A DNA stretch of 64,000 nt. It comes from Eledone cirrhosa. Taxonomy: Eukaryota. Below the pieces are notes generated by a model. It searched no databases. It saw nothing but the letters and a program-made list of their open reading frames with translations, and had not been told where the DNA came from. The stretch covers positions 100,758 to 164,757 of the forward strand of contig CAXHJY010000080.1 in NCBI GenBank assembly GCA_964016885.1, in the 5' to 3' direction. The first letter of the stretch is position 1, and each line of letters opens with the position of its first letter. Positions 1 to 28,046 of the stretch are shown here, piece after piece. The position numbers and the translations under genes were made by a program.

Positions 1-1358
1 ATTGCTTACTGCCATTATATAAAATATCAGCTTTATTAAATATCTAAGTCAGCTTTTACAATTCCTGCAGTTAACAGTTCTAATAATATCAGTAAATATC
101 CCATGTCATTGCGCTACATACCTTTCCCTTCCACCTTCTATAATGTATGTTATCCTATGATAACTCCTATTGCTTTATTAACAATGACTCATCCATGCGA
201 TATCTGTTTGTCAGTTAGAATCAAATAACTGAAATTATATCTACCTTCTTTTTTAATATTATTTATTATCAAGGTTGAAATATTCTGTACAATCTCTACA
301 GTATATTTATATTCTAGTGATAACATTCCATATAACATTGACCTTCCAAATATATAACATTGATTATGAACTAATTTTTAATGACCCAATACTCTGGCTG
401 TGTATTAGTTTTACTGTTTCATTCTACAATTATTTCTCTTATAATTAACAGATTATTTTCTTCAATAAGTCGTTATATTTCTAGAATCTTTGAATGATAC
501 ATATTAATAAAAACTAATGGAGACAAGATTGCTGTACACTCAATCTTCACAATTACCAGCATTTATTGATGTAATTACTCTGTATTTAACACAGCTAATA
601 TCTCTGCTTTAAAACCTAGACATAAATTCCTAATATATACCAATAAGTCATCGATCCTTTACAATATTTGAAGATAATCTACCAATATTCTTTATAATGC
701 TTCTACAAAATATGATGCCATAACTGTTATGACAATACCTGCAGCATGTAATTGTGATAACGTCTACCAATATACTGAATTAGTGTATAATATATCTTAT
801 TTGCTTCATGTCAATCTAGTGGAATTTTTGTTTATAATATATAAAATTTCACTGTTGCCATATCTTCAGCTTTATGCATGTGTGAATTATTGTAAATAAT
901 AGAAACTGTATTTCTGTATAAATGTGTAGAATCATTGATAATCAGTGATTATATAACGTTTGTGATATTCTGGAAATGTAACTGTGATATGAATGGAAGG
1001 CTGAATAATACTTTTCTTGTGACAAACTCTAACTTTCAGATATTCTTGTGACAAACTGTGACTTTCACACAAATACTAATAGATTTTGTCTTCATATTGA
1101 TATTCGTAATCTGTAATACCTAAATATTTACAAAGTAAATTAAATTAATTTAATATTTAAACTTTATCTGTAAGAAATATGTCATATCTCTCTTGAAATA
1201 TGTTTCTTACTTTCAATACCAACTGACTTAAAATATAACATTTATATGTAATACACTTCAATATGTAGGTAATATATTACATTGTTTTACTTTCAATTTA
1301 CTATCAACTATTTAGAATTCTATCTTAATGAGTTATGTGATTATTATTTCCATAAAAG

Positions 1359-1415
1359 GAGGAGAAATAGTGACACCTAGTAGAGTTCCAATAATTGAAA
1401 CAACCAGAAAGAGAG
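1359..1415 (+). CDS. 57-nt optional linker exon (GGEIVTPSRVPIIETTRKR), unit 1
   Basis: ttattatttccataaaAG|GAGGAGAA...AAGAGAG|GTgaga; phase 1-1, stop-free, purine-rich island in AT-rich intron. Confidence 0.75.
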
Positions 1416-1719
1416 GTGAGATATTACTGAAACATATTTATATATACTTAGATATGTTACAGAACAACACTTATAATATATAGAACATATTACATAACAA
1501 TTATTTCAATATCATCACTGGAATATTAATTAGTTATTCACAGTCAGCTATTGGAGATTAAACAGAAATATATATAGTAACATATTTCAAAATATCAACA
1601 TTTACATATTCTTATGAATATATAAAGTATATTTCAATATTTCAGATTATCTAGCAATGTCTTACTAACAGATTTCACATCATATCTTTAAACTTACAAC
1701 AATATTTTATTTCTCGCAG

Positions 1720-1764
1720 TTGTTGAAAAAACTCCAGCACCTGCTATTACATTACCAACTAAGG
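1720..1764 (+). CDS. 45-nt linker exon (VVEKTPAPAITLPTK), unit 1
   Basis: tttctcgcAG|TTGTTGAA...ACTAAGG|GTaagg; phase 1-1. Confidence 0.9.
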
Positions 1765-2514
1765 GTAAGGCCCTTGTACTCCTCAACATACTCTTTTATG
1801 TTATATTGATATCTTTATGTCTATGTTAATCATAGCTACCTCTTTCTTTGTCAATCTCTTATTTCTATATATAAACATTCATTGATCTGTCAGATGTTGT
1901 CAATATAATTCAGTAAATTATACTGTCTATCAGTAAAGTTCAATATATTTATCTATAGATGTAGTTATATCTTTTGTCTCTGTGATATATGTTTGGTATG
2001 TTTTCTATATTTGTTATTTCTAAGATACCATCTTGAAATATTTCTTATTATTTGTTTGATCTCCTGACAATGTAGTCTCCTCATATATGGTCTGTAGTTT
2101 CATGTTGTGTTGTTTATTTGGAATATTGTTTTATGTAGAGTTGTTATTGTTTTGTTGTAGTGTTTTGGTAACAATTCAAACCATATCTTGTTATGTGAAG
2201 TTATATCTTACCTTAATAAGTTGATTTCTATATTGATATATTGTTTTTGTTGATTCTTTGTTATGTGACAGTATATCCCTATGTACCAGTTGATGGTTTG
2301 TTATGTATCAGAATATATAGTTATGTTGTAATATTATTTCAATATTACCATGTCACCATCTTAACTGTTCTGTACTGTATCAATACAATGTACATGTAAT
2401 GTAACATATTGTTCTGTTATGTCACTCAGTCTATGTTAAAAGATAATGTTAGATTTATCTATCAGCCACTCTACATTATTCTATTAGTTAAAAACTTATT
2501 ATAATGTTCTCCAG

Positions 2515-3084
2515 GTGGCTGCGGCAATACAAAATCTGACATCATCTTCATTTTGGATTCCTCAACTAGTGTCCAAGCAGAAAATTTTCAGAAAATGCTC
2601 GATTTTGTAGTTGACTTTGTCTCTGCTGCTGATATTGACAGTGGCAATGTTAGAATCGGTGCAGTACTCTACAGTACAGATGTGAAAATACAATTCCATT
2701 TAAATGATTTCCAAAGTAAACAACAAATGATCAAGGCAGTTGGTGAAATTGCCTATGTTTATGGTAGTACAAACACTTATGGTGGACTAAACACAATGAG
2801 GACAGTAATGTTTACAAGAGAGAATGGTGACAGGCCATCTGTTGACAATATTGCCATACTTCTTACTGATGGTGTATCAAATATCAATTCATATCAGACT
2901 ATTCCAGAAGCAGTGAAAGTTAGAGAAGATGGCATCCATATATATGCTATAGGTATTGGTCTAACTGATACTACAGAATTGAGCAAGATTTCATCACTTC
3001 CTGTCAGTGAAAATATGTTTGTTGTCACTGATTTCAACGAATTATCGAATCTCAAGGAAAGAATCTTTGAACAATATTGCCCAG
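2515..3084 (+). CDS. vWA domain exon 1 (570 nt, 190 aa)
   Basis: ttctccAG|GTGGCTGC...TGCCCAG|GTatag; GCGNTKSDIIFILDSSTS (DxSxS), GSTNT, LLTDG, IYAIGIG, terminal YCP. Confidence 0.95.
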
Positions 3085-4524
3085 GTATAGCAATTAGCAT
3101 GTGATAACAAAGTCATACTGTACTTGATACTATTACTAATATCCAATCCCTCAGTCATTTATCAATATTGCTTACTGCCATTATATAAAATATCAGCTTT
3201 ATTAAATATCTAAGTCAGCTTTTACAATTCCTGCAGTTAACAGTTCTAATAATATCAGTAAATATCCCATGTCATTGCGCTACATACCTTTCCCTTCCAC
3301 CTTCTATAATGTATGTTATCCTATGATAACTCCTATTGCTTTATTAACAATGACTCATCCATGCGATATCTGTTTGTCAGTTAGAATCAAATAACTGAAA
3401 TTATATCTACCTTCTTTTTTAATATTATTTATTATCAAGGTTGAAATATTCTGTACAATCTCTACAGTATATTTATATTCTAGTGATAACATTCCATATA
3501 ACATTGACCTTCCAAATATATAACATTGATTATGAACTAATTTTTAATGACCCAATACTCTGGCTGTGTATTAGTTTTACTGTTTCATTCTACAATTATT
3601 TCTCTTATAATTAACAGATTATTTTCTTCAATAAGTCGTTATATTTCTAGAATCTTTGAATGATACATATTAATAAAAACTAATGGAGACAAGATTGCTG
3701 TACACTCAATCTTCACAATTACCAGCATTTATTGATGTAATTACTCTGTATTTAACACAGCTAATATCTCTGCTTTAAAACCTAGACATAAATTCCTAAT
3801 ATATACCAATAAGTCATAGATCCTTTACAATATTTGAAGATAATCTACCAATATTCTTTATAATGCTTCTACAAAATATGATCCCATAACTGTTATGACA
3901 ATACCTGCAGCATGTAATTGTGATAACGTCTACCAATATACTGAATTAGTGTATAATATATCTTATTTGCTTCATGTCAATCTAGTGGAATTTTTGTTTA
4001 TAATATATAAAATTTCACTGTTGCCATATCTTCAGCTTTATGCATGTGTGAATTATTGTAAATAATAGAAACTGTATTTCTGTATAAATGTGTAGAATCA
4101 TTGATAATCAGTGATTATATAACGTTTGTGATATTCTGGAAATGTAACTGTGATATGAATGGAAGGCTGAATAATACTTTTCTTGTGACAAACTCTAACT
4201 TTCAGATATTCTTGTGACAAACTGTGACTTTCACACAAATACTAATAGATTTTGTCTTCATATTGATATTCGTAATCTGTAATACCTAAATATTTACAAA
4301 GTAAATTAAATTAATTTAATATTTAAACTTTATCTGTAAGAAATATGTCATATCTCTCTTGAAATATGTTTCTTACTTTCAATACCAACTGACTTAAAAT
4401 ATAACATTTATATGTAATACACTTCAATATGTAGGTAATATATTACATTGTTTTACTTTCAATTTACTATCAACTATTTAGAATTCTATCTTAATGAGTT
4501 ATGTGATTATTATTTCCATAAAAG

Positions 4525-4581
4525 GAGGAGAAATAGTGACACCTAGTAGAGTTCCAATAATTGAAACAACCAGAAAGAGAG
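4525..4581 (+). CDS. 57-nt RKR linker exon, unit 2
   Basis: Same sequence and splice sites as 1359-1415. Confidence 0.75.
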
Positions 4582-4885
4582 GTGAGATATTACTGAAACA
4601 TATTTATATATACTTAGATATGTTACAGAACAACACTTATAATATATAGAACATATTACATAACAATTATTTCAATATCATCACTGGAATATTAATTAGT
4701 TATTCACAGTCAGCTATTGGAGATTAAACAGAAATATATATAGTAACATATTTCAAAATATCAACATTTACATATTCTTATGAATATATAAAGTATATTT
4801 CAATATTTCAGATTATCTAGCAATGTCTTACTAACAGATTTCACATCATATCTTTAAACTTACAACAATATTTTATTTCTCGCAG

Positions 4886-4930
4886 TTGTTGAAAAAACTC
4901 CAGCACCTGCTATTACATTACCAACTAAGG
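4886..4930 (+). CDS. 45-nt linker exon, unit 2
   Basis: Same as 1720-1764. Confidence 0.9.
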
Positions 4931-5680
4931 GTAAGGCCCTTGTACTCCTCAACATACTCTTTTATGTTATATTGATATCTTTATGTCTATGTTAATCATA
5001 GCTACCTCTTTCTTTGTCAATCTCTTATTTCTATATATAAACATTCATTGATCTGTCAGATGTTGTCAATATAATTCAGTAAATTATACTGTCTATCAGT
5101 AAAGTTCAATATATTTATCTATAGATGTAGTTATATCTTTTGTCTCTGTGATATATGTTTGGTATGTTTTCTATATTTGTTATTTCTAAGATACCATCTT
5201 GAAATATTTCTTATTATTTGTTTGATCTCCTGACAATGTAGTCTCCTCATATATGGTCTGTAGTTTCATGTTGTGTTGTTTATTTGGAATATTGTTTTAT
5301 GTAGAGTTGTTATTGTTTTGTTGTAGTGTTTTGGTAACAATTCAAACCATATCTTGTTATGTGAAGTTATATCTTACCTTAATAAGTTGATTTCTATATT
5401 GATATATTGTTTTTGTTGATTCTTTGTTATGTGACAGTATATCCCTATGTACCAGTTGATGGTTTGTTATGTATCAGAATATATAGTTATGTTGTAATAT
5501 TATTTCAATATTACCATGTCACCATCTTAACTGTTCTGTACTGTATCAATACAATGTACATGTAATGTAACATATTGTTCTGTTATGTCACTCAGTCTAT
5601 GTTAAAAGATAATGTTAGATTTATCTATCAGCCACTCTACATTATTCTATTAGTTAAAAACTTATTATAATGTTCTCCAG

Positions 5681-6250
5681 GTGGCTGCGGCAATACAAAA
5701 TCTGACATCATCTTCATTTTGGATTCCTCAACTAGTGTCCAAGCAGAAAATTTTCAGAAAATGCTCGATTTTGTAGTTGACTTTGTCTCTGCTGCTGATA
5801 TTGACAGTGGCAATGTTAGAATCGGTGCAGTACTCTACAGTACAGATGTGAAAATACAATTTCATTTAAATGATTTCCAAAGTAAACAACAAATGATCAT
5901 GGCAGTTGGTGAAATTGCCTATGTTTATGGTAGTACAAACACTTATGGTGGACTAAACACAATGAGGACAGTAATGTTTACAAGAGAGAATGGTGACAGG
6001 CCATCTGTTGACAATATTGCCATACTTCTTACTGATGGTGTATCAAATATCAATTCATATCAGACTATTCCAGAAGCAGTGAAAGTTAGAGAAGATGGCA
6101 TCCATATATATGCTATAGGTATTGGTCTAACTGATACTACAGAATTGAGCAAGATTTCATCACTTCCTGTCAGTGAAAATATGTTTGTTGTCACTGACTT
6201 CAACGAATTATCGAATCTCAAGGAAAGAATCTTTGAACAATATTGCCCAG
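5681..6250 (+). CDS. vWA domain exon 2 (K>M variant)
   Basis: Copy of exon 1; ORF track 5719-6270. Confidence 0.95.
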
Positions 6251-7705
6251 GTATAGCAATTAGCATGTGATAACAAAGTGATACTGTACTTGATACTATT
6301 ACTAATATCCAATCCCTCAGGCAATTAATATTCTAAAGATATATCATTTATCAATATTGCTTACTGCCATTATATAAAATATCAGCTTTATTAAATATCT
6401 AAGTCAGCTTTTACAATTCCTGCAGTTAACAGTTCTAATAATATCAGTAAATATCCCATGTCATTGCGCTACATACCTTTCCCTTCCACCTTCTATAATG
6501 TATGTTATCCTATGATAACTCCTATTGCTTTATTAACAATGACTCATCCATGCGATATCTGTTTGTCAGTTAGAATCAAATAACTGAAATTATATCTACC
6601 TTCTTTTTTAATATTATTTATTATCAAGGTTGAAATATTCTGTACAATCTCTACAGTATATTTATATTCTAGTGATAACATTCCATATAACATTGACCTT
6701 CCAAATATATAACATTGATTATGAACTAATTTTTAATGACCCAATACTCTGGCTGTGTATTAGTTTTACTGTTTCATTCTACAATTATTTCTCTTATAAT
6801 TAACAGATTATTTTCTTCAATAAGTCGTTGTATTTCTAGAATCTTTGAATGATTCATATTAATAAAAACTAATGGAGACTAGATTGCTGTACACTCAATC
6901 TTCACAATTACCAGCATTTATTGATGTAATTACTCTGTATTTAACACAGCTAATATCTCTGGTTTAAAACCTAGACATAAATTCCTAATATATACCAATA
7001 AGTCATAGATCCTTTACTATATGTGAAGATAATCTACCAATATTCTTTATAATGCTTCTACAAAATATGATGCCATAACTGTTATGACAATACCTGCAGC
7101 ATGTAATTCTGATAACGTCTACCAATATACTGAATTAGTGTATAATATATCTTATTTGCTTCATGTCATTCTAGTGGAATTTTTGTTTATAAAATATAAA
7201 ATTTCACTGTTGCCATATCTTCAGCTTTATGCATGTGTGAATTATTGTAAATAATAGAAACTGTATTTCTGTATAAATGTGTAGATTAATTGATAACCAG
7301 TGATTATGTAACGTTTGTGATATTCTGGAAAGGTAACTGTGATATGAATGGAAGGCTGAATAATACTTTTCTTGTGACAAACTCTAACTTTCAGATATTC
7401 TTGTGACAAACTGTGACTTTCACACAAATACTGATAGATTTATTACAGAACAACACTTATAATATATAGAACACATTACATAACAATTATTTCAATATCA
7501 TCACTGGAATATTAATTAGTTATTCACAGTCAGCTATTGGAGATTAAACAGAAATATATATAGTAACATATTTCAAAATATCAACATTTATATATTCTTA
7601 TGAATATATAAATTATATTTCAATATTTCAGATTATCTATCAATGTCTTACTAACAGATTTCACATCATATCTTTAAACTTACAACAATATTTTATTTCT
7701 CGCAG

Positions 7706-7750
7706 TTGTTGAAAAAACGCCAGCACCTGCTATTACATTACCAACTAAGG
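7706..7750 (+). CDS. 45-nt linker exon, unit 3 (synonymous ACT>ACG)
   Basis: Same splice sites; unit lacks the 57-nt exon. Confidence 0.9.
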
Positions 7751-8500
7751 GTAAGGCCCTTGTACTCCTCAACATACTCTTTTATGTTATATTGATATCT
7801 TTATGTCTATGTTAATCATAGCTACCTCTTTCTTTGTCAATCTCTTATTTCTATATATAAACATTCATTGATCTGTCAGATGTTGTCAATATAATTCAGT
7901 AAATTATACTGTCTATCAGTAAAGTTCAATATATTTATCTATAGATGTAGTTATATCTTTTGTCTCTGTGATATATGATTGGTATGTTTTCTATATTTGT
8001 TATTTCTAAGATACCATCTTGAAATATTTCTTATTATTTGTTTGATCTCCTGACAATGTAGTTTCCTCATATGTGGTCTGTAGTTTCATGTTGTGTTGTT
8101 TATTTGGAATATTGTTTTATGTAGAGTTGTTATTGTTTTGTTGTAGTGTTTTGGTAACAATTCAAACCATATCTTGTTATGTGAAGTTATATCTTACCTT
8201 AATAAGTTGATTTCTATATTGATATATTGTTTTTGTTGATTCTTTGTTATGTGACTGTATATCCCTATGTACCAGTTGATGGTTTGTTATGTATCAGAAT
8301 ATATAGTTATGTTGTAATATTATTTCAATATTACCATGTCACCATCTTAACCGTTCAGTACTGTATCAATACAATGTACATGTAATGTAACATATTGTTC
8401 TGTTATGTCACTCAGTCTATGTTAAAAGATAATGTTAGATTTATCTATCAGCCACTCTACATTATTCTATTAGTTAAAAACTTATTATAATGTTCTCCAG

Positions 8501-9070
8501 GTGGCTGCGGCAATACAAAATCTGACATCATCTTCATTTTGGATTCCTCAACTAGTGTCCAAGCAGAAAATTTTCAGAAAATGCTCGATTTTGTAGTTGA
8601 CTTTGTCTCTGCTGCTGATATTGACAGTGGCAATGTTAGAATCGGTGCAGTACTCTACAGTACAGATGTGAAAATACAATTTCATTTAAATGATTTCCAA
8701 AGTAAACAACAAATGATCATGGCAGTTGGTGAAATTGCCTATGTTTATGGTAGTACAAACACTTATGGTGGACTAAACACAATGAGGACAGTAATGTTTA
8801 CAAGAGAGAATGGTGACAGGCCATCTGTTGACAATATTGCCATACTTCTTACTGATGGTGTATCAAATATCAATTCATATCAGACTATTCCAGAAGCAGT
8901 GAAAGTTAGAGAAGATGGCATCCATATATATGCTATAGGTATTGGTCTAACTGATACTACAGAATTGAGCAAGATTTCATCACTTCCTGTCAGTGAAAAT
9001 ATGTTTGTTGTCACTGATTTCAACGAATTATCGAATCTCAAGGAAAGAATCTTTGAACAATATTGCCCAG
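8501..9070 (+). CDS. vWA domain exon 3 (K>M variant)
   Basis: Copy of exon 1; ORF track 8539-9090. Confidence 0.95.
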
Positions 9071-10508
9071 GTATAGCAATTAGCATGTGATAACAAAGTC
9101 ATACTGTACTTGATACTATTACTAATATCCAATCCCTCAGTCATTTATCAATATTGCTTACTGCCATTATATAAAATATCAGCTTTATTAAATATCTAAG
9201 TCAGCTTTTACAATTCCTGCAGTTAACAGTTCTAATAATATCAGTAAATATCCCATGTCATTGCGCTACATACCTTTCCCTTCCACCTTCTATAATGTAT
9301 GTTATCCTATGATAACTCCTATTGCTTTATTAACAATGACTCATCCATGCGATATCTGTTTGTCAGTTAGAATCAAATAACTGAAATTATATCTACCTTC
9401 TTTTTTAATATTATTTATTATCAAGGTTGAAATATTCTGTACAATCTCTACAGTATATTTATATTCTAGTGATAACATTCCATATAACATTGACCTTCCA
9501 AATATATAACATTGATTATGAACTAATTTTTAATGACCCAATACTCTGGCTGTGTATTAGTTTTACTGTTTCATTCTACAATTATTTCTCTTATAATTAA
9601 CAGATTATTTTCTTCAATAAGTCGTTATATTTCTAGAATCTTAGAATGATTCATATTAATAAAAACTAATGGAGACAAGATTGCTGTACACTCAATCTTC
9701 ACAATTACCAGCATTTATTGATGTAATTACTCTGTATTTAACACAGCTAATATCTCTGCTTTAAAACCTAGACATAAATTCCTAATATATACCATTAAGT
9801 CATAGATCCTTTACTATATGTGAAGATAATCTACCAATATTCTTTATAATGCTTCTACAAAATATGATGCCATAACTGTTATGACAATACCTGCAGCATG
9901 TAATTGTGATAACGTCTACCAATATACTGAATTAGTGTATAATATATCTTATTTGCTTCATGTCATTCTAGTGGAATTTTTGTTTATAAAATATAAAATT
10001 TCACTGTTGCCATATCTTCAGCTTTATGCATGTGTGAATTATTGTAAATAATAGAAACTGTATTTCTGTATAAATGAGTAGAATCATTGATAACCAGTGA
10101 TTATGTAACTTTTGTGATATACTGGAAAGGTAACTGTGATATGAATGGAAGGCTGAATAATACTTTTCTTGTGACAAACTCTAACTTTCAGATATTCTTG
10201 TGACAAACTGTGACTTTCACACAAATACTAATAGATTTATTACAGAACAACACTTATAATATATAGAACACATTACATAACAATTATTTCAATATTATCA
10301 CTGGAATATTAATTAGTTATTCACAGTCAGCTATTGGAGATTAAACAGAAATATATATATATATAGTAACATATTTCAAAATATCAACATTTACATATTC
10401 TTATGAATATATAAAATATATTTCAATATTTCAGATTATCTAGCAATGTCTTACTAACAGATTTCACATCATATCTTTAAACTTACAACAATATTTTATT
10501 TCTCGCAG

Positions 10509-10553
10509 TTGTTGAAAAAACTCCAGCACCTGCTATTACATTACCAACTAAGG
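10509..10553 (+). CDS. 45-nt linker exon, unit 4
   Basis: Same splice sites. Confidence 0.9.
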
Positions 10554-11303
10554 GTAAGGCCCTTGTACTCCTCAACATACTCTTTTATGTTATATTGATA
10601 TCTTTATGTCTATGTTAATCATAGCTACCTCTTTCTTTGTCAATCTCTTATTTCTATATATAAACATTCATTGATCTGTCAGATGTTGTCAATATAATTC
10701 AGTAAATTATACTGTCTATCAGTAAAGTTCAATATATTTATCTATAGATGTAGTTATATCTTTTGTCTCTGTGATATATGTTTGGTATGTTTTCTATATT
10801 TGTTATTTCTAAGATACCATCTTGAAATATTTCTTATTATTTGTTTGATCTTCTGACAATGTAGTCTCCTCATATGTGGTCTGTAGTTTCATGTTGTGTT
10901 GTTTATTTGGAATATTGTTTTATGTAGAGTTGTTATTGTTTTGTTGTAGTGTTTTGATAACAATTCAAACCATATCTTGTTATGTGAAGTTATATCTTAC
11001 CTTAATAAGTTGATTTCTATATTGATATATTGTTTTTGTTGATTCTTTGTTATGTGACAGTATATCCCTATGTACCAGTTGATGGTTTGTTATGTATCAG
11101 AATATATAGTTATGTTGTAATATTATTTCAATATTACCCTGTCACCATCTTAACTGTTATGTACTGTATCAATACAATGTACATGTAATGTAACATATTG
11201 TTCTGTTATGTCACTCAGTCTATGTTAAAAGATAATGTTAGATTTATCTATCAGCCACTCTACATTATTCTATTAGTTAAAAACTTATTATAATGTTCTC
11301 CAG

Positions 11304-11873
11304 GTGGCTGCGGCAATACAAAATCTGACATCATCTTCATTTTGGATTCCTCAACTAGTGTTCAAGCAGAAAATTTTCAGAAAATGCTCGATTTTGTAGT
11401 TGACTTTGTCTCTGCTGCTGATATTGACAGTGGCAATGTTAGAATCGGTGCAGTACTCTACAGTACAGATGTGAAAATACAATTCCATTTAAATGATTTC
11501 CAAAGTAAACAACAAATGATCAAGGCAGTTGGTGAAATTGCCTATGTTTATGGTAGTACAAACACTTATGGTGGACTAAACACAATGAGGACAGTAATGT
11601 TTACAAGAGAGAATGGTGACAGGCCATCTGTTGACAATATTGCCATACTTCTTACTGATGGTGTATCAAATATCAATTCATATCAGACTATTCCAGAAGC
11701 AGTGAAAGTTAGAGAAGATGGCATCCATATATATGCTATAGGTATTGGTCTAACTGATACTACAGAATTGAGCAAGATTTCATCACTTCCTGTCAGTGAA
11801 AATATGTTTGTTGTCACTGATTTCAACGAATTATCGAATCTCAAGGAAAGAATCTTTGAACAATATTGCCCAG
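11304..11873 (+). CDS. vWA domain exon 4
   Basis: Copy of exon 1; ORF track 11342-11893. Confidence 0.95.
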
Positions 11874-13305
11874 GTATAGCAATTAGCATGTGATAACAAA
11901 GTCATACTGTACTTGATACTATTACTAATATCCAATCCCTCAGTCATTTATCAATATTGCTTACTGCCATTATATAAAATATCAGCTTTATTAAATATCT
12001 AAGTCAGCTTTTACAATTCCTGCAGTTAACAGTTCTAATAATATCAGTAAATATCCCATGTCATTGCGCTACATACCTTTCCCTTCCACCTTCTATAATG
12101 TATGTTATCCTATGATAACTCCTATTGCTTTATTAACAATGACTCATCCATGCGATATCTGTTTGTCAGTTAGAATCAAATAACTGAAATTATATCTACC
12201 TTCTTTTTTAATATTATTTATTATCAAGGTTGAAATATTCTGTACAATCTCTACAGTATATTTATATTCTAGTGATAACATTCCATATAACATTGACCTT
12301 CCAAATATATAACATTGATTATGAACTAATTTTTAATGACCCAATACTCTGGCTGTGTATTAGTTTTACTGTTTCATTCTACAATTATTTCTCTTATAAT
12401 TAACAGATTATTTTCTTCAATAAGTCGTTGTATTTCTAGAATCTTTGAATGATTCATATTAATAAAAACTAATGGAGACTAGATTGCTGTACACTCAATC
12501 TTCACAATTACCAGCATTTATTGATGTAATTACTCTGTATTTAACACAGCTAATATCTCTGGTTTAAAACCTAGACATAAATTCCTAATATATACCAATA
12601 AGTCATAGATCCTTTACTATATGTGAAGATAATCTACCAATATTCTTTATAATGCTTCTACAAAATATGATGCCATAACTGTTATGACAATACCTGCAGC
12701 ATGTAATTCTGATAACGTCTACCAATATACTGAATTAGTGTATAATATATCTTATTTGCTTCATGTCATTCTAGTGGAATTTTTGTTTATAAAATATAAA
12801 ATTTCACTGTTGCCATATCTTCAGCTTTATGCATGTGTGAATTATTGTAAATAATAGAAACTGTATTTCTGTATAAATGTGTAGATTAATTGATAACCAG
12901 TGATTATGTAACGTTTGTGATATTCTGGAAAGGTAACTGTGATATGAATGGAAGGCTGAATAATACTTTTCTTGTGACAAACTCTAACTTTCAGATATTC
13001 TTGTGACAAACTGTGACTTTCACACAAATACTGATAGATTTATTACAGAACAACACTTATAATATATAGAACACATTACATAACAATTATTTCAATATCA
13101 TCACTGGAATATTAATTAGTTATTCACAGTCAGCTATTGGAGATTAAACAGAAATATATATAGTAACATATTTCAAAATATCAACATTTATATATTCTTA
13201 TGAATATATAAATTATATTTCAATATTTCAGATTATCTATCAATGTCTTACTAACAGATTTCACATCATATCTTTAAACTTACAACAATATTTTATTTCT
13301 CGCAG

Positions 13306-13350
13306 TTGTTGAAAAAACGCCAGCACCTGCTATTACATTACCAACTAAGG
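13306..13350 (+). CDS. 45-nt linker exon, unit 5 (synonymous ACT>ACG)
   Basis: Same splice sites. Confidence 0.9.
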
Positions 13351-14100
13351 GTAAGGCCCTTGTACTCCTCAACATACTCTTTTATGTTATATTGATATCT
13401 TTATGTCTATGTTAATCATAGCTACCTCTTTCTTTGTCAATCTCTTATTTCTATATATAAACATTCATTGATCTGTCAGATGTTGTCAATATAATTCAGT
13501 AAATTATACTGTCTATCAGTAAAGTTCAATATATTTATCTATAGATGTAGTTATATCTTTTGTCTCTGTGATATATGATTGGTATGTTTTCTATATTTGT
13601 TATTTCTAAGATACCATCTTGAAATATTTCTTATTATTTGTTTGATCTCCTGACAATGTAGTTTCCTCATATGTGGTCTGTAGTTTCATGTTGTGTTGTT
13701 TATTTGGAATATTGTTTTATGTAGAGTTGTTATTGTTTTGTTGTAGTGTTTTGGTAACAATTCAAACCATATCTTGTTATGTGAAGTTATATCTTACCTT
13801 AATAAGTTGATTTCTATATTGATATATTGTTTTTGTTGATTCTTTGTTATGTGACTGTATATCCCTATGTACCAGTTGATGGTTTGTTATGTATCAGAAT
13901 ATATAGTTATGTTGTAATATTATTTCAATATTACCATGTCACCATCTTAACCGTTCAGTACTGTATCAATACAATGTACATGTAATGTAACATATTGTTC
14001 TGTTATGTCACTCAGTCTATGTTAAAAGATAATGTTAGATTTATCTATCAGCCACTCTACATTATTCTATTAGTTAAAAACTTATTATAATGTTCTCCAG

Positions 14101-14670
14101 GTGGCTGCGGCAATACAAAATCTGACATCATCTTCATTTTGGATTCCTCAACTAGTGTCCAAGCAGAAAATTTTCAGAAAATGCTCGATTTTGTAGTTGA
14201 CTTTGTCTCTGCTGCTGATATTGACAGTGGCAATGTTAGAATCGGTGCAGTACTCTACAGTACAGATGTGAAAATACAATTTCATTTAAATGATTTCCAA
14301 AGTAAACAACAAATGATCATGGCAGTTGGTGAAATTGCCTATGTTTATGGTAGTACAAACACTTATGGTGGACTAAACACAATGAGGACAGTAATGTTTA
14401 CAAGAGAGAATGGTGACAGGCCATCTGTTGACAATATTGCCATACTTCTTACTGATGGTGTATCAAATATCAATTCATATCAGACTATTCCAGAAGCAGT
14501 GAAAGTTAGAGAAGATGGCATCCATATATATGCTATAGGTATTGGTCTAACTGATACTACAGAATTGAGCAAGATTTCATCACTTCCTGTCAGTGAAAAT
14601 ATGTTTGTTGTCACTGATTTCAACGAATTATCGAATCTCAAGGAAAGAATCTTTGAACAATATTGCCCAG
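14101..14670 (+). CDS. vWA domain exon 5 (K>M variant)
   Basis: Copy of exon 1; ORF track 14139-14690. Confidence 0.95.
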
Positions 14671-16108
14671 GTATAGCAATTAGCATGTGATAACAAAGTC
14701 ATACTGTACTTGATACTATTACTAATATCCAATCCCTCAGTCATTTATCAATATTGCTTACTGCCATTATATAAAATATCAGCTTTATTAAATATCTAAG
14801 TCAGCTTTTACAATTCCTGCAGTTAACAGTTCTAATAATATCAGTAAATATCCCATGTCATTGCGCTACATACCTTTCCCTTCCACCTTCTATAATGTAT
14901 GTTATCCTATGATAACTCCTATTGCTTTATTAACAATGACTCATCCATGCGATATCTGTTTGTCAGTTAGAATCAAATAACTGAAATTATATCTACCTTC
15001 TTTTTTAATATTATTTATTATCAAGGTTGAAATATTCTGTACAATCTCTACAGTATATTTATATTCTAGTGATAACATTCCATATAACATTGACCTTCCA
15101 AATATATAACATTGATTATGAACTAATTTTTAATGACCCAATACTCTGGCTGTGTATTAGTTTTACTGTTTCATTCTACAATTATTTCTCTTATAATTAA
15201 CAGATTATTTTCTTCAATAAGTCGTTATATTTCTAGAATCTTAGAATGATTCATATTAATAAAAACTAATGGAGACAAGATTGCTGTACACTCAATCTTC
15301 ACAATTACCAGCATTTATTGATGTAATTACTCTGTATTTAACACAGCTAATATCTCTGCTTTAAAACCTAGACATAAATTCCTAATATATACCATTAAGT
15401 CATAGATCCTTTACTATATGTGAAGATAATCTACCAATATTCTTTATAATGCTTCTACAAAATATGATGCCATAACTGTTATGACAATACCTGCAGCATG
15501 TAATTGTGATAACGTCTACCAATATACTGAATTAGTGTATAATATATCTTATTTGCTTCATGTCATTCTAGTGGAATTTTTGTTTATAAAATATAAAATT
15601 TCACTGTTGCCATATCTTCAGCTTTATGCATGTGTGAATTATTGTAAATAATAGAAACTGTATTTCTGTATAAATGAGTAGAATCATTGATAACCAGTGA
15701 TTATGTAACTTTTGTGATATACTGGAAAGGTAACTGTGATATGAATGGAAGGCTGAATAATACTTTTCTTGTGACAAACTCTAACTTTCAGATATTCTTG
15801 TGACAAACTGTGACTTTCACACAAATACTAATAGATTTATTACAGAACAACACTTATAATATATAGAACACATTACATAACAATTATTTCAATATTATCA
15901 CTGGAATATTAATTAGTTATTCACAGTCAGCTATTGGAGATTAAACAGAAATATATATATATATAGTAACATATTTCAAAATATCAACATTTACATATTC
16001 TTATGAATATATAAAATATATTTCAATATTTCAGATTATCTAGCAATGTCTTACTAACAGATTTCACATCATATCTTTAAACTTACAACAATATTTTATT
16101 TCTCGCAG

Positions 16109-16153
16109 TTGTTGAAAAAACTCCAGCACCTGCTATTACATTACCAACTAAGG
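16109..16153 (+). CDS. 45-nt linker exon, unit 6
   Basis: Same splice sites. Confidence 0.9.
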
Positions 16154-16903
16154 GTAAGGCCCTTGTACTCCTCAACATACTCTTTTATGTTATATTGATA
16201 TCTTTATGTCTATGTTAATCATAGCTACCTCTTTCTTTGTCAATCTCTTATTTCTATATATAAACATTCATTGATCTGTCAGATGTTGTCAATATAATTC
16301 AGTAAATTATACTGTCTATCAGTAAAGTTCAATATATTTATCTATAGATGTAGTTATATCTTTTGTCTCTGTGATATATGTTTGGTATGTTTTCTATATT
16401 TGTTATTTCTAAGATACCATCTTGAAATATTTCTTATTATTTGTTTGATCTTCTGACAATGTAGTCTCCTCATATGTGGTCTGTAGTTTCATGTTGTGTT
16501 GTTTATTTGGAATATTGTTTTATGTAGAGTTGTTATTGTTTTGTTGTAGTGTTTTGATAACAATTCAAACCATATCTTGTTATGTGAAGTTATATCTTAC
16601 CTTAATAAGTTGATTTCTATATTGATATATTGTTTTTGTTGATTCTTTGTTATGTGACAGTATATCCCTATGTACCAGTTGATGGTTTGTTATGTATCAG
16701 AATATATAGTTATGTTGTAATATTATTTCAATATTACCCTGTCACCATCTTAACTGTTATGTACTGTATCAATACAATGTACATGTAATGTAACATATTG
16801 TTCTGTTATGTCACTCAGTCTATGTTAAAAGATAATGTTAGATTTATCTATCAGCCACTCTACATTATTCTATTAGTTAAAAACTTATTATAATGTTCTC
16901 CAG

Positions 16904-17473
16904 GTGGCTGCGGCAATACAAAATCTGACATCATCTTCATTTTGGATTCCTCAACTAGTGTTCAAGCAGAAAATTTTCAGAAAATGCTCGATTTTGTAGT
17001 TGACTTTGTCTCTGCTGCTGATATTGACAGTGGCAATGTTAGAATCGGTGCAGTACTCTACAGTACAGATGTGAAAATACAATTCCATTTAAATGATTTC
17101 CAAAGTAAACAAGAAATGATCAAGGCAGTTGGTGAAATTGCCTATGTTTATGGTAGTACAAACACTTATGGTGGACTAAACACAATGAGGACAGTAATGT
17201 TTACAAGAGAGAATGGTGACAGGCCATCTGTTGACAATATTGCCATACTTCTTACTGATGGTGTATCAAATATCAATTCATATCAGACTATTCCAGAAGC
17301 AGTGAAAGTTAGAGAAGATGGCATCCATATATATGCTATAGGTATTGGTCTAACTGATACTACAGAATTGAGCAAGATTTCATCACTTCCTGTCAGTGAA
17401 AATATGTTTGTTGTCACTGATTTCAACGAATTATCGAATCTCAAGGAAAGAATCTTTGAACAATATTGCCCAG
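16904..17473 (+). CDS. vWA domain exon 6 (Q>E variant)
   Basis: Copy of exon 1; ORF track 16942-17493. Confidence 0.95.
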
Positions 17474-18911
17474 GTATAGCAATTAGCATGTGATAACAAA
17501 GTCATACTGTACTTGATACTATTACTAATATCCAATCCCTCAGTCATTTATCAATATTGCTTACTGCCATTATATAAAATATCAGCTTTATTAAATATCT
17601 AAGTCAGCTTTTACAATTCCTGCAGTTAACAGTTCTAATAATATCAGTAAATATCCCATGTCATTGCGCTACATACCTTTCCCTTCCACCTTCTATAATG
17701 TATGTTATCCTATGATAACTCCTATTGCTTTATTAACAATGACTCATCCATGCGATATCTGTTTGTCAGTTAGAATCAAATAACTGAAATTATATCTACC
17801 TTCTTTTTTAATATTATTTATTATCAAGGTTGAAATATTCTGTACAATCTCTACAGTATATTTATATTCTAGTGATAACATTCCATATAACATTGACCTT
17901 CCAAATATATAACATTGATTATGAACTAATTTTTAATGACCCAATACTCTGGCTGTGTATTAGTTTTACTGTTTCATTCTACAATTATTTCTCTTATAAT
18001 TAACAGATTATTTTCTTCAATAAGTCGTTATATTTCTAGAATCTTAGAATGATTCATATTAATAAAAACTAATGGAGACAAGATTGCTGTACACTCAATC
18101 TTCACAATTACCAGCATTTATTGATGTAATTACTCTGTATTTAACACAGCTAATATCTCTGCTTTAAAACCTAGACATAAATTCCTAATATATACCATTA
18201 AGTCATAGATCCTTTACTATATGTGAAGATAATCTACCAATATTCTTTATAATGCTTCTACAAAATATGATGCCATAACTGTTATGACAATACCTGCAGC
18301 ATGTAATTGTGATAACGTCTACCAATATACTGAATTAGTGTATAATATATCTTATTTGCTTCATGTCATTCTAGTGGAATTTTTGTTTATAAAATATAAA
18401 ATTTCACTGTTGCCATATCTTCAGCTTTATGCATGTGTGAATTATTGTAAATAATAGAAACTGTATTTCTGTATAAATGAGTAGAATCATTGATAACCAG
18501 TGATTATGTAACTTTTGTGATATACTGGAAAGGTAACTGTGATATGAATGGAAGGCTGAATAATACTTTTCTTGTGACAAACTCTAACTTTCAGATATTC
18601 TTGTGACAAACTGTGACTTTCACACAAATACTAATAGATTTATTACAGAACAACACTTATAATATATAGAACACATTACATAACAATTATTTCAATATTA
18701 TCACTGGAATATTAATTAGTTATTCACAGTCAGCTATTGGAGATTAAACAGAAATATATATATATATAGTAACATATTTCAAAATATCAACATTTACATA
18801 TTCTTATGAATATATAAAATATATTTCAATATTTCAGATTATCTAGCAATGTCTTACTAACAGATTTCACATCATATCTTTAAACTTACAACAATATTTT
18901 ATTTCTCGCAG

Positions 18912-18956
18912 TTGTTGAAAAAACTCCAGCACCTGCTATTACATTACCAACTAAGG
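18912..18956 (+). CDS. 45-nt linker exon, unit 7
   Basis: Same splice sites. Confidence 0.9.
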
Positions 18957-19706
18957 GTAAGGCCCTTGTACTCCTCAACATACTCTTTTATGTTATATTG
19001 ATATCTTTATGTCTATGTTAATCATAGCTACCTCTTTCTTTGTCAATCTCTTATTTCTATATATAAACATTCATTGATCTGTCAGATGTTGTCAATATAA
19101 TTCAGTAAATTATACTGTCTATCAGTAAAGTTCAATATATTTATCTATAGATGTAGTTATATCTTTTGTCTCTGTGATATATGTTTGGTATGTTTTCTAT
19201 ATTTGTTATTTCTAAGATACCATCTTGAAATATTTCTTATTATTTGTTTGATCTTCTGACAATGTAGTCTCCTCATATGTGGTCTGTAGTTTCATGTTGT
19301 GTTGTTTATTTGGAATATTGTTTTATGTAGAGTTGTTATTGTTTTGTTGTAGTGTTTTGATAACAATTCAAACCATATCTTGTTATGTGAAGTTATATCT
19401 TACCTTAATAAGTTGATTTCTATATTGATATATTGTTTTTGTTGATTCTTTGTTATGTGACAGTATATCCCTATGTACCAGTTGATGGTTTGTTATGTAT
19501 CAGAATATATAGTTATGTTGTAATATTATTTCAATATTACCCTGTCACCATCTTAACTGTTATGTACTGTATCAATACAATGTACATGTAATGTAACATA
19601 TTGTTCTGTTATGTCACTCAGTCTATGTTAAAAGATAATGTTAGATTTATCTATCAGCCACTCTACATTATTCTATTAGTTAAAAACTTATTATAATGTT
19701 CTCCAG

Positions 19707-20276
19707 GTGGCTGCGGCAATACAAAATCTGACATCATCTTCATTTTGGATTCCTCAACTAGTGTTCAAGCAGAAAATTTTCAGAAAATGCTCGATTTTGT
19801 AGTTGACTTTGTCTCTGCTGCTGATATTGACAGTGGCAATGTTAGAATCGGTGCAGTACTCTACAGTACAGATGTGAAAATACAATTCCATTTAAATGAT
19901 TTCCAAAGTAAACAACAAATGATCAAGGCAGTTGGTGAAATTGCCTATGTTTATGGTAGTACAAACACTTATGGTGGACTGAACACAATGAGGACAGTAA
20001 TGTTTACAAGAGAGAATGGTGACAGGCCATCTGTTGACAATATTGCCATACTTCTTACTGATGGTGTATCAAATATCAATTCATATCAGACTATTCCAGA
20101 AGCAGTGAAAGTTAGAGAAGATGGCATCCATATATATGCTATAGGTATTGGTCTAACTGATACTACAGAATTGAGCAAGATTTCATCACTTCCTGTCAGT
20201 GAAAATATGTTTGTTGTCACTGATTTCAACGAATTATCGAATCTCAAGGAAAGAATCTTTGAACAATATTGCCCAG
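19707..20276 (+). CDS. vWA domain exon 7
   Basis: Copy of exon 1; ORF track 19745-20296. Confidence 0.95.
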
Positions 20277-21714
20277 GTATAGCAATTAGCATGTGATAAC
20301 AAAGTCATACTGTACTTGATACTATTACTAATATCCAATCCCTCAGTCATTTATCAATATTGCTTACTGCCATTATATAAAATATCAGCTTTATTAAATA
20401 TCTAAGTCAGCTTTTACAATTCCTGCAGTTAACAGTTCTAATAATATCAGTAAATATCCCATGTCATTGCGCTACATACCTTTCCCTTCCACCTTCTATA
20501 ATGTATGTTATCCTATGATAACTCCTATTGCTTTATTAACAATGACTCATCCATGCGATATCTGTTTGTCAGTTAGAATCAAATAACTGAAATTATATCT
20601 ACCTTCTTTTTTAATATTATTTATTATCAAGGTTGAAATATTCTGTACAATCTCTACAGTATATTTATATTCTAGTGATAACATTCCATATAACATTGAC
20701 CTTCCAAATATATAACATTGATTATGAACTAATTTTTAATGACCCAATACTCTGGCTGTGTATTAGTTTTACTGTTTCATTCTACAATTATTTCTCTTAT
20801 AATTAACAGATTATTTTCTTCAATAAGTCGTTGTATTTCTAGAATCTTTGAATGATACATATTAATAAAAACTAATGGAGACAAGATTGCTGTACACTCA
20901 ATCTTCACAATTACCAGCATTTATTGATGTAATTACTCTGTATTTAACACAGCTAATATCTCTGCTTTAAAACCTAGACATAAATTCCTAATATATACCA
21001 TTAAGTCATAGATCCTTTACTATATGTGAAGATAATCTACCAATATTCTTTATAATGCTTCTACAAAATATGATGCCATAACTGTTATGACAATACCTGC
21101 AGCATGTAATTGTGATAACGTCTACCAATATACTGAATTAGTGTATAATATATCTTATTTGCTTCATGTCATTCTAGTGGAATTTTTGTTTATAAAATAT
21201 AAAATTTCACTGTTGCCATATCTTCAGCTTTATGCATGTGTGAATTATTGTAAATAATAGAAACTGTATTTCTGTATAAATGAGTAGAATCATTGATAAC
21301 CAGTGATTATGTAACTTTTGTGATATACTGGAAAGGTAACTGTGATATGAATGGAAGGCTGAATAATACTTTTCTTGTGACAAACTCTAACTTTCAGATA
21401 TTCTTGTGACAAACTGTGACTTTCACACAAATACTAATAGATTTATTACAGAACAACACTTATAATATATAGAACACATTACATAACAATTATTTCAATA
21501 TTATCACTGGAATATTAATTAGTTATTCACAGTCAGCTATTGGAGATTAAACAGAAATATATATATATATAGTAACATATTTCAAAATATCAACATTTAC
21601 ATATTCTTATGAATATATAAAATATATTTCAATATTTCAGATTATCTAGCAATGTCTTACTAACAGATTTCACATCATATCTTTAAACTTACAACAATAT
21701 TTTATTTCTCGCAG

Positions 21715-21759
21715 TTGTTGAAAAAACTCCAGCACCTGCTATTACATTACCAACTAAGG
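21715..21759 (+). CDS. 45-nt linker exon, unit 8
   Basis: Same splice sites. Confidence 0.9.
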
Positions 21760-22509
21760 GTAAGGCCCTTGTACTCCTCAACATACTCTTTTATGTTATA
21801 TTGATATCTTTATGTCTATGTTAATCATAGCTACCTCTTTCTTTGTCAATCTCTTATTTCTATATATAAACATTCATTGATCTGTCAGATGTTGTCAATA
21901 TAATTCAGTAAATTATACTGTCTATCAGTAAAGTTCAATATATTTATCTATAGATGTAGTTATATCTTTTGTCTCTGTGATATATGTTTGGTATGTTTTC
22001 TATATTTGTTATTTCTAAGATACCATCTTGAAATATTTCTTATTATTTGTTTGATCTTCTGACAATGTAGTCTCCTCATATGTGGTCTGTAGTTTCATGT
22101 TGTGTTGTTTATTTGGAATATTGTTTTATGTAGAGTTGTTATTGTTTTGTTGTAGTGTTTTGATAACAATTCAAACCATATCTTGTTATGTGAAGTTATA
22201 TCTTACCTTAATAAGTTGATTTCTATATTGATATATTGTTTTTGTTGATTCTTTGTTATGTGACAGTATATCCCTATGTACCAGTTGATGGTTTGTTATG
22301 TATCAGAATATATAGTTATGTTGTAATATTATTTCAATATTACCCTGTCACCATCTTAACTGTTATGTACTGTATCAATACAATGTACATGTAATGTAAC
22401 ATATTGTTCTGTTATGTCACTCAGTCTATGTTAAAAGATAATGTTAGATTTATCTATCAGCCACTCTACATTATTCTATTAGTTAAAAACTTATTATAAT
22501 GTTCTCCAG

Positions 22510-23079
22510 GTGGCTGCGGCAATACAAAATCTGACATCATCTTCATTTTGGATTCCTCAACTAGTGTTCAAGCAGAAAATTTTCAGAAAATGCTCGATTT
22601 TGTAGTTGACTTTGTCTCTGCTGCTGATATTGACAGTGGCAATGTTAGAATCGGTGCAGTACTCTACAGTACAGATGTGAAAATACAATTCCATTTAAAT
22701 GATTTCCAAAGTAAACAACAAATGATCAAGGCAGTTGGTGAAATTGCCTATGTTTATGGTAGTACAAACACTTATGGTGGACTAAACACAATGAGGACAG
22801 TAATGTTTACAAGAGAGAATGGTGACAGGCCATCTGTTGACAATATTGCCATACTTCTTACTGATGGTGTATCAAATATCAATTCATATCAGACTATTCC
22901 AGAAGCAGTGAAAGTTAGAGAAGATGGCATCCATATATATGCTATAGGTATTGGTCTAACTGATACTACAGAATTGAGCAAGATTTCATCACTTCCTGTC
23001 AGTGAAAATATGTTTGTTGTCACTGATTTCAACGAATTATCGAATCTCAAGGAAAGAATCTTTGAACAATATTGCCCAG
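22510..23079 (+). CDS. vWA domain exon 8
   Basis: Copy of exon 1; ORF track 22548-23099. Confidence 0.95.
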
Positions 23080-24519
23080 GTATAGCAATTAGCATGTGAT
23101 AACAAAGTCATACTGTACTTGATACTATTACTAATATCCAATCCCTCAGTCATTTATCAATATTGCTTACTGCCATTATATAAAATATCAGCTTTATTAA
23201 ATATCTAAGTCAGCTTTTACAATTCCTGCAGTTAACAGTTCTAATAATATCAGTAAATATCCCATGTCATTGCGCTACATACCTTTCCCTTCCACCTTCT
23301 ATAATGTATGTTATCCTATGATAACTCCTATTGCTTTATTAACAATGACTCATCCATGCGATATCTGTTTGTCAGTTAGAATCAAATAACTGAAATTATA
23401 TCTACCTTCTTTTTTAATATTATTTATTATCAAGGTTGAAATATTCTGTACAATCTCTACAGTATATTTATATTCTAGTGATAACATTCCATATAACATT
23501 GACCTTCCAAATATATAACATTGATTATGAACTAATTTTTAATGACCCAATACTCTGGCTGTGTATTAGTTTTACTGTTTCATTCTACAATTATTTCTCT
23601 TATAATTAACAGATTATTTTCTTCAATAAGTCGTTGTATTTCTAGAATCTTTGAATGATACATATTAATAAAAACTAATGGAGACAAGATTGCTGTACAC
23701 TCAATCTTCACAATTACCAGCATTTATTGATGTAATTACTCTGTATTTAACACAGCTAATATCTCTGCTTTAAAACCTAGACATAAATTCCTAATATATA
23801 CCATTAAGTCATAGATCCTTTACTATATGTGAAGATAATCTACCAATATTCTTTATAATGCTTCTACAAAATATGATGCCATAACTGTTATGACAATACC
23901 TGCAGCATGTAATTGTGATAACGTCTACCAATATACTGAATTAGTGTATAATATATCTTATTTGCTTCATGTCATTCTAGTGGAATTTTTGTTTATAAAA
24001 TATAAAATTTCACTGTTGCCATATCTTCAGCTTTATGCATGTGTGAATTATTGTAAATAATAGAAACTGTATTTCTGTATAAATGAGTAGAATCATTGAT
24101 AACCAGTGATTATGTAACGTTTGTGATATACTGGAAAGGTAACTGTGATATGAATGGAAGGCTGAATAATACTTTTCTTGTGACAAACTCTAACTTTCAG
24201 ATATTCTTGTGACAAACTGTGACTTTCACACAAATACTAATAGATTTTGTCTTCATATTGATATTCGTAATCTGTAATACCTAAATATTTACAAAGTAAA
24301 TTAAATTAATTTAATATTTAAACTTTATCTGTAAGAAATATGTCATATCTCTCTTGAAATATGTTTCTTACTTTCAATACCAACTGACTTAAAATATAAC
24401 ATTTATATGTAATACACTTCAATATGTAGGTAATATATTACATTGTTTTACTTTCAATTTACTATCAACTATTTAGAATTCTATCTTAATGAGTTATGTG
24501 ATTATTATTTCCATAAAAG

Positions 24520-24576
24520 GAGGAGAAATAGTGACACCTAGTAGAGTTCCAATAATTGAAACAACCAGAAAGAGAG
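24520..24576 (+). CDS. 57-nt RKR linker exon, unit 9
   Basis: Same as 1359-1415. Confidence 0.75.
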
Positions 24577-24880
24577 GTGAGATATTACTGAAACATATTT
24601 ATATATACTTAGATATGTTACAGAACAACACTTATAATATATAGAACATATTACATAACAATTATTTCAATATCATCACTGGAATATTAATTAGTTATTC
24701 ACAGTCAGCTATTGGAGATTAAACAGAAATATATATAGTAACATATTTCAAAATATCAACATTTACATATTCTTATGAATATATAAAGTATATTTCAATA
24801 TTTCAGATTATCTAGCAATGTCTTACTAACAGATTTCACATCATATCTTTAAACTTACAACAATATTTTATTTCTCGCAG

Positions 24881-24925
24881 TTGTTGAAAAAACTCCAGCA
24901 CCTGCTATTACATTACCAACTAAGG
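24881..24925 (+). CDS. 45-nt linker exon, unit 9
   Basis: Same splice sites. Confidence 0.9.
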
Positions 24926-25675
24926 GTAAGGCCCTTGTACTCCTCAACATACTCTTTTATGTTATATTGATATCTTTATGTCTATGTTAATCATAGCTAC
25001 CTCTTTCTTTGTCAATCTCTTATTTCTATATATAAACATTCATTGATCTGTCAGATGTTGTCAATATAATTCAGTAAATTATACTGTCTATCAGTAAAGT
25101 TCAATATATTTATCTATAGATGTAGTTATATCTTTTGTCTCTGTGATATATGTTTGGTATGTTTTCTATATTTGTTATTTCTAAGATACCATCTTGAAAT
25201 ATTTCTTATTATTTGTTTGATCTCCTGACAATGTAGTCTCCTCATATATGGTCTGTAGTTTCATGTTGTGTTGTTTATTTGGAATATTGTTTTATGTAGA
25301 GTTGTTATTGTTTTGTTGTAGTGTTTTGGTAACAATTCAAACCATATCTTGTTATGTGAAGTTATATCTTACCTTAATAAGTTGATTTCTATATTGATAT
25401 ATTGTTTTTGTTGCTTCTTTGTTATGTGACAGTATATCCCTATGTACCAGTTGATGGTTTGTTATGTATCAGAATATATAGTTATGTTGTAATATTATTT
25501 CAATATTACCATGTCACCATCTTAACTGTTCTGTACTGTATCAATACAATGTACATGTAATGTAACATATTGTTCTGTTATGTCACTCAGTCTATGTTAA
25601 AAGATAATGTTAGATTTATCTATCAGCCACTCTACATTATTCTATTAGTTAAAAACTTATTATAATGTTCTCCAG

Positions 25676-26245
25676 GTGGCTGCGGCAATACAAAATCTGA
25701 CATCATCTTCATTTTGGATTCCTCAACTAGTGTCCAAGCAGAAAATTTTCAGAAAATGCTCGATTTTGTAGTTGACTTTGTCTCTGCTGCTGATATTGAC
25801 AGTGGCAATGTTAGAATCGGTGCAGTACTCTACAGTACAGATGTGAAAATACAATTCCATTTAAATGATTTCCAAAGTAAACAACAAATGATCAAGGCAG
25901 TTGGTGAAATTGCCTATGTTTATGGTAGTACAAACACTTATGGTGGACTAAACACAATGAGGACAGTAATGTTTACAAGAGAGAATGGTGACAGGCCATC
26001 TGTTGACAATATTGCCATACTTCTTACTGATGGTGTATCAAATATCAATTCATATCAGACTATTCCAGAAGCAGTGAAAGTTAGAGAAGATGGCATCCAT
26101 ATATATGCTATAGGTATTGGTCTAACTGATACTACAGAATTGAGCAAGATTTCATCACTTCCTGTCAGTGAAAATATGTTTGTTGTCACTGATTTCAACG
26201 AATTATCGAATCTCAAGGAAAGAATCTTTGAACAATATTGCCCAG
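25676..26245 (+). CDS. vWA domain exon 9
   Basis: Copy of exon 1; ORF track 25714-26265. Confidence 0.95.
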
Positions 26246-27685: not shown

Positions 27686-27742
27686 GAGGAGAAATAGTGA
27701 CACCTAGTAGAGTTCCAATAATTGAAACAACCAGAAAGAGAG
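27686..27742 (+). CDS. 57-nt RKR linker exon, unit 10
   Basis: Same as 1359-1415. Confidence 0.75.
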
Positions 27743-28046
27743 GTGAGATATTACTGAAACATATTTATATATACTTAGATATGTTACAGAACAACACTTA
27801 TAATATATAGAACATATTACATAACAATTATTTCAATATCATCACTGGAATATTAATTAGTTATTCACAGTCAGCTATTGGAGATTAAACAGAAATATAT
27901 ATAGTAACATATTTCAAAATATCAACATTTACATATTCTTATGAATATATAAAGTATATTTCAATATTTCAGATTATCTAGCAATGTCTTACTAACAGAT
28001 TTCACATCATATCTTTAAACTTACAACAATATTTTATTTCTCGCAG

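Follow-up and report, generated by a model that had tools for sequence, protein, structure and literature searches.

A variable 57-nt segment, very likely a linker exon, in a tandem vWA array of the octopod Eledone cirrhosa

Analysis of a window of 64,000 nucleotides from Eledone cirrhosa (the whole stretch of DNA considered here) points to a 57-nt segment that is present in some units of a tandem vWA array, deleted from others, and very likely a real coding exon. We favor, with a probability of about 0.58, its interpretation as a linker-length variant whose presence or absence would toggle the spacer between vWA domains between 34 and 15 residues, programmed cutting at these spacers being probably absent. 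The original prediction had taken the segment, whose peptide ends in RKR, for a patterned cleavage code and had kept a 19-residue linker toggle with unequal exchange as its fallback; the fallback is the best reading. According to this reading, the exon is likely ancestral and would code for part of a Thr/Pro-rich spacer separating vWA domains in what is predicted to be a giant matrix protein; one 369-bp deletion likely removed it from a single unit, and unequal exchange likely spread the short unit through the array. From the sequence we infer that the exon is included in mRNA, that the protein is secreted and O-glycosylated on its spacers, and that it is not cleaved there.

Array units and the 57-nt segment

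Seventeen units stand in tandem in the window, and each combines a 45-nt exon with a vWA exon of 570 nt (Table 1). The window forms the end of a contig (G000:C107) on which nine further units of the same type, hereafter B-type, precede it. None of these nine carries the 57-nt exon, and the complete B array comprises 26 units in the order S9 L2 S6 L8 S1, where L and S denote long and short units. The order predicted within the window, L L S S S S S S L L L L L L L L S, was recovered in full, but only as part of the longer array: the exon is present in 10/17 units of the window and 10/26 of the array. Since the intron upstream of the first B unit is a different junction sequence, there are 25 and not 26 B-B linkers, ten long and 15 short. 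Each unit has two to three introns, and the near-identical units stay in open frames of phase 1-1 exons (26 B units and, as described below, 39 A units), presumably within a single transcript. The size of the vWA exon had to be corrected to 570 nt. vWA domains carry a MIDAS-type motif, DxSxS...T...D, and DSSTS, T and TDG are read in the B exon, which matches the VWA family (PF00092).

Table 1. Coordinates of the features within the window (position 1 is the first nucleotide)
Feature	Position	Strand	Remarks
B-type tandem array, part in window	1..51391	+	units 2.8 or 3.2 kb, 99.3-99.7% identical
369-bp block, in long units, deleted from short	1086..1454		alignment of 25 units
57-nt phase 1-1 linker exon GGEIVTPSRVPIIETTRKR, unit 1	1359..1415	+	orthologous 19-aa linkers in P0293 (12/19) and P0285 (9/19); flanks aaAG / G|GTGAGA
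57-nt exon, unit 2	4525..4581	+	
57-nt exon, unit 9	24520..24576	+	
57-nt exon, unit 10	27686..27742	+	
57-nt exon, unit 11	30875..30931	+	
57-nt exon, unit 12	34041..34097	+	
57-nt exon, unit 13	37336..37392	+	
57-nt exon, unit 14	40502..40558	+	
57-nt exon, unit 15	43668..43724	+	
57-nt exon, unit 16	46840..46896	+	
45-nt phase 1-1 linker exon VVEKTPAPAITLPTK	1720..1764	+	all 17 window units (last 50027-50071); both GT-AG joints seen in a run X4 contig; peptide identical to Octopus sinensis models (15/15)
570-nt phase 1-1 exon, one B-type vWA domain	2515..3084	+	Pfam VWA E=9e-44; 17 window copies (last 50822-51391), 26 on contig
Candidate 27-nt stalk exon (RPTRYMPT)	55521..55547	+	AG/GT and frame; position like RPIPT in P0285
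54-nt Pro/Thr stalk exon	57085..57138	+	81% match to P0285 stalk
63-nt Pro-rich stalk exon	62401..62463	+	13/20 to P0285

Long and short units differ by a block whose length, 369 bp, agrees with the original prediction; its position does not, the alignment placing it at 1086-1454 instead of 1080-1449 (4252-4620 in unit 2). As predicted, the 57-nt segment within it is stop-free in phase 1-1, and it is letter-identical in all ten units. Its GC content is 39%, against 21% in the remainder of the block. The donor ranks first among the 76 GT dinucleotides of the intron, whereas the AAG acceptor is weak (30th of 65 AG); both ranks are rough, as the splice matrix was built from 64 homology-derived sites, many of them near-duplicates and some misplaced.

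Two predicted gene models of Octopus sinensis contain an orthologous linker. In P0285, the 19-residue sequence GGQPEPTRQPPIIEMTTKR follows all five B-domain ends (5/5) and is identical to the exon peptide at 9/19 positions; in P0293, GGQPEPTRRTPIIETTRKR follows one extra Glu in the single complete linker and is identical at 12/19. One of these O. sinensis linkers ends in PIIETTRKR and the other in TTKR. The P0293 linker aligns to the 57-nt exon with a score of 56, which none of 20,000 shuffles reached; the highest six-frame score that the remaining regions examined gave was 33. The weaker test with the P0285 peptide alone gave a score of 38, attained by 8 of 20,000 shuffles, and a 43 occurs somewhere in 240 kb of contig C21. 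It is because of the orthologous linker together with the strong donor that we call the segment an exon. Neither the A-B junction nor the sequence following the last unit yielded a paralogous 57-nt exon (scores of 30 and 32, vs. 56). At the start of the exon, window positions 1356-1367 present in-frame tandem AG acceptors (AAAG GAG GAG), and the extra Glu preceding GG in P0293 suggests that the acceptor may slide here. A separate intronic tandem repeat with a 57-bp period (4.9 copies) lies at 54939-55220; by eye it is unrelated in sequence to the 57-nt exon.

The predicted gene and its relatives

The B array is preceded by 39 vWA units of a second type, the A type (about 1.64 kb each, 63% identical to the B type), and by one divergent domain. 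The A units constitute a second homogenised array (G000:C107:10,283-73,349), in which a 39-nt linker exon, devoid of dibasic pairs, is present in 38/38 linkers. A profile search located 66 domains on C107 and 25 matches on C21, the latter counted as 21 domains. In XP_036368516.1 from O. sinensis, B units are followed by a Pro/Thr stalk and then by vWA and EGF domains, which map collinearly to G000:C21 at 19.57-19.64 Mb. Three vWA exons precede a 200-N gap at C21:19,505,916, and the stalk resumes just after it. The ends of C107 do not overlap the gap edges; placement therefore rests on exon order, from which C107 probably fills this gap (region G000:C21:19,484,933-19,644,416). If so, the joined gene would encode about 87 vWA domains, 65 of which sit in the two homogenised arrays, a stalk and EGF domains, amounting to about 18,000 residues (sum of parts, with the 5' domains added). 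A crude signal-peptide scan, prone to many false matches, gave one plausible Met-hydrophobic phase-1 exon at G000:C21:19,468,504. Phase 1-1 Thr/Pro mini-exons build up the gene, and the stalk has about 50 that measure 39 nt. These form a third array of tandem exons at G000:C21:19,511,889-19,549,513, encoding 13-residue Pro/Thr/Val repeats with higher-order repetition. Elsewhere in the genome, vWA domains each encoded by a single exon (35-44% identical) form further clusters at G000:C4:319.98-320.89 Mb, C1:270.87-271.11 Mb and C2:94.08-94.12 Mb, with repeats at a spacing of about 14 kb in some.

Orthologous B-type (84-86%) and A-type (164/188) vWA repeats are found in the O. sinensis models XP_036368516.1 (LOC115223644), XP_029654099.2, XP_029650176.1/XP_036368327.1 and XP_029650172.2, and an orthologous B-type domain (77%) in the protein of Acanthosepion pharaonis annotated as 'COL6A' (CAE1248468.1). 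These models share linkers, stalk and vWA/EGF tail with the E. cirrhosa gene; they are automatic models of two to five units, split into several genes. A further search for homologues returned only O. sinensis (one of six candidates). A literature search, with subscription papers and bioRxiv supplements outside its scope, retrieved no paper naming five of the accessions and nothing on this gene, and five identifiers looked for are absent from the one supplement of PMC10138644.

The best solved-structure matches of the B vWA domain are collagen VI alpha3 and the mussel protein PTMP1, and matrix proteins of the collagen VI alpha3, matrilin-like and PTMP1 kinds likewise combine multiple vWA domains with EGF domains. 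The Gly-X-Y triple helix of collagen VI has no counterpart: the longest such run in the 4,624-residue orthologous model P0285, which excludes the A array and the 5' end, is six residues, so the protein is not a collagen. It would differ from these vWA matrix proteins by its approximately 87 domains and by the homogenisation of its two arrays.

The basic motif as a putative cleavage site

The most serious alternative is genuine processing at the KR that ends the exon: a kexin-, PC1/3- or PC2-like or a trypsin-like protease would cut there and release vWA units, the site having ancestrally been located at every B linker and the deletion having taken it from 15/25 linkers in an incidental order. 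We consider this unlikely, while acknowledging several observations that speak for it. KR is kept in all three octopod variants (3/3), and RKR in two of them, E. cirrhosa and P0293. Across the site, 24/24 residues are identical to P0293 (the last nine of the exon and the next 15), compared with 158/189 (84%) for the domain and 1/8 for exon positions 3-10; identity to P0285 is likewise concentrated in the 3' half of the exon (7/9, against 2/10 in the 5' half; post hoc P=0.02). Dibasic pairs are rare in close-family linkers: KR or RR was found in 2/32 distinct linkers and RKR in none, the set having been taken before P0285 and P0293 were added. A protein of this size might, moreover, need trimming. 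As for precedents, cleavage at RMKR is described for Pif177, a molluscan vWA protein (PMC3091754, in the part consulted), and fungal Kex2 substrates are described in passages of PMC2515848 as favoring small residues, including Val, at P1'/P2'.

Against it stands the sequence of the site, which reads T-T-R-K-R|V-V, with Thr at P4 and P5; the absence of Arg at P4, already recognized in the original prediction, means that the basic P4 of R-X-K/R-R is lacking, and P4-P1 are T-R-K-R both here and in P0293 and T-T-K-R in P0285. P1' is the aliphatic Val here (Gly in 3/5 of the P0285 linkers), and according to sections of PMC5129557 and PMC3713968 an aliphatic residue in this position makes a site unsuitable for furin. 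Neighboring O-glycans can prevent cutting at a convertase site, as reported for ANGPTL3 in the consulted part of PMC7527996, and the flanking Thr residues could carry such blocking glycans. Other linker exons of the gene are equally conserved (8/8, 10/10, 9/9, 12/13, 10/12 and 7/11; three linkers had no match and the A linker gave only 5/13). At an overall identity of 9/19, the chance of keeping both K and R is 0.21. The expectation that RKR would be conserved in orthologs holds in part, with KR in both O. sinensis models and RKR in one, but the linker of the cuttlefish model P0006, whose domain is 77% identical, lacks a dibasic pair. Finally, a regularly spaced motif between units is not observed: 60% of the B linkers do without KR (10/25 have it), and the A-type linkers contain no dibasic pair (0/38).

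Nematode polyprotein allergens and filaggrin also consist of near-identical tandem units with a basic motif, which in the E. cirrhosa array lies between some units only. In those polyproteins, K/R-X-K/R-R sites are spaced regularly and the repeat is interrupted by few introns or none (PMC3079579, consulted in part), whereas here the sites occur in 10/25 B and 0/38 A linkers, P4 is Thr and every unit has introns. With irregular sites and two to three introns per unit, the predicted gene fails to qualify as a tandemly repetitive polyprotein. Pif177, which combines vWA with chitin binding and is cut into Pif97 and Pif80, is a molluscan vWA protein that is processed at a basic site; it contains one full furin site between unlike parts and not a tandem array, according to the section of PMC3091754 consulted. 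We hold it improbable that the predicted matrix protein, with its approximately 18,000 residues, behaves as a vWA polyprotein undergoing partial cleavage, in which gain and loss of the KR exon by unequal exchange would set the number of single domains released and the lengths of the uncut runs, i.e., a genome-encoded distribution of fragment sizes. A downstream linker of the same protein contains Arg-rich TTPRR repeats with many basic pairs (G000:C21 at about 19,630,900; P0285 residues 3416-3485), which is another candidate processing or glycan-binding region.

Origin and spread of the short units

One may also imagine that E. cirrhosa inherited the 57-nt exon but today mostly skips it or is letting it decay, so that long and short units would give the same protein. 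The weak acceptor and the divergent 5' half of the exon are consistent with this, as is the only spliced contig seen, from run X4, which joins a vWA exon directly to the 45-nt exon. That run, whose kind is not on record, covers only exons with GT-AG joints, at a depth of about 12 and without coverage of the 57-nt exon, and its contigs drop variants; as 15 short linkers predict exactly such a joint, it says nothing on the inclusion of the exon. Skipping is further made improbable by the donor, the best of 76, by the preserved frame, length and 3' half, and by the lack of any change across ten copies.

The linker-length reading implies that the short units arose by loss, likely through one deletion, a direction we favor because a single breakpoint is shared by all 15 aligned short units, no other copy of the block was found in the genome, and the relative keeps the peptide. 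TAGAT is present at both block edges (1080-1084 and 1449-1453) and adjoins the breakpoint, from which the deletion would be microhomology-mediated. The genome search, which may overlook diverged copies, returned ten copies of the block, all in the array. We considered and rejected an origin of the block or the exon from a transposon: a by-eye likeness to a common short repeat near 52,600-52,830 failed to beat shuffles in 14/14 comparisons, and the genome search gave only the array copies. Variable sites, one in the 369 of the block vs. 24 in 2,780 flanking sites, are too few to judge selection within the array.

The order of long and short units is clustered beyond chance (five runs in 26 units, P=0.0005), and this clustering is what block duplication yields. 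Indeed, B02 and B04 are identical over 2,778 columns, B12 and B14 differ from them by one or two positions, and B23 equals B24. SNPs adjoining the block track the long/short state, while those farther away form a mosaic across long and short units. Further lineage markers are a 106-bp tandem duplication in one unit (window 36106-36317) and, at unit starts (e.g., 6251-6350), a 23-bp insertion in 6/25 aligned units and a 6-bp TA indel in ten. The SNPs show that the order reflects duplication history. Together with an identity of 99.3-99.7% within the array, vs. 84-86% at the protein level to O. sinensis, the block duplications and mosaic units show that this array, set in a vWA matrix protein, behaves like other exon arrays under concerted evolution.

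That the order is instead a selected cleavage code setting the ratio of vWA monomers to multimers is very doubtful. The non-random clustering could be cited for it, as could the B fragments of 9, 1, 7, 1, 1, 1, 1, 1, 1, 1 and 2 domains that cutting would yield; the fragment arithmetic of the original prediction, 224-residue monomers and a 1,454-residue 7-mer, is right. Tandem duplication, however, gives clustering by itself, the code depends on the putative cleavage with its unfavorable P4, P5 and P1' residues, and the O. sinensis models have no unit lacking the 19-residue linker. Even if every site were cut, the first fragment would still be joined to about 43 and the last to about 18 further domains, and ten sites would free only eight monomers out of the approximately 87 vWA domains predicted for the gene.

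An assembly artefact in the order or number of these 99% identical units, for which one might invoke the unplaced status of C107 and the units differing by 0-2 bases, is most improbable, as both the block and the 369-bp skip were seen as DNA in contigs of three of four runs (one sample, possibly the assembly's own) and the depth of a block-specific piece relative to a vWA piece, a rough guide, was 0.43, 0.43 and 0.38 against an expected 0.385.

The O. sinensis models vary in the 45-nt peptide instead, with 2, 1, 0 and 0 copies in P0285 and presence in isoform X1 but not in X2, and the spacers are therefore 19, 34 or 49 residues long; E. cirrhosa, in contrast, deletes the 57-nt exon in DNA. Spacer exons would thus vary in both lineages, yet a different exon in each. 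The array offers a clear case in which a spacer exon was lost and the loss was passed on among exon units that homogenise one another. It also brings to light a gene that would encode a single giant protein but is broken up by automatic annotation into several 'collagen-like' pieces. Should the KR be cut after all, the array would allow one to ask directly whether the turnover of copies adjusts how the polyprotein is processed.
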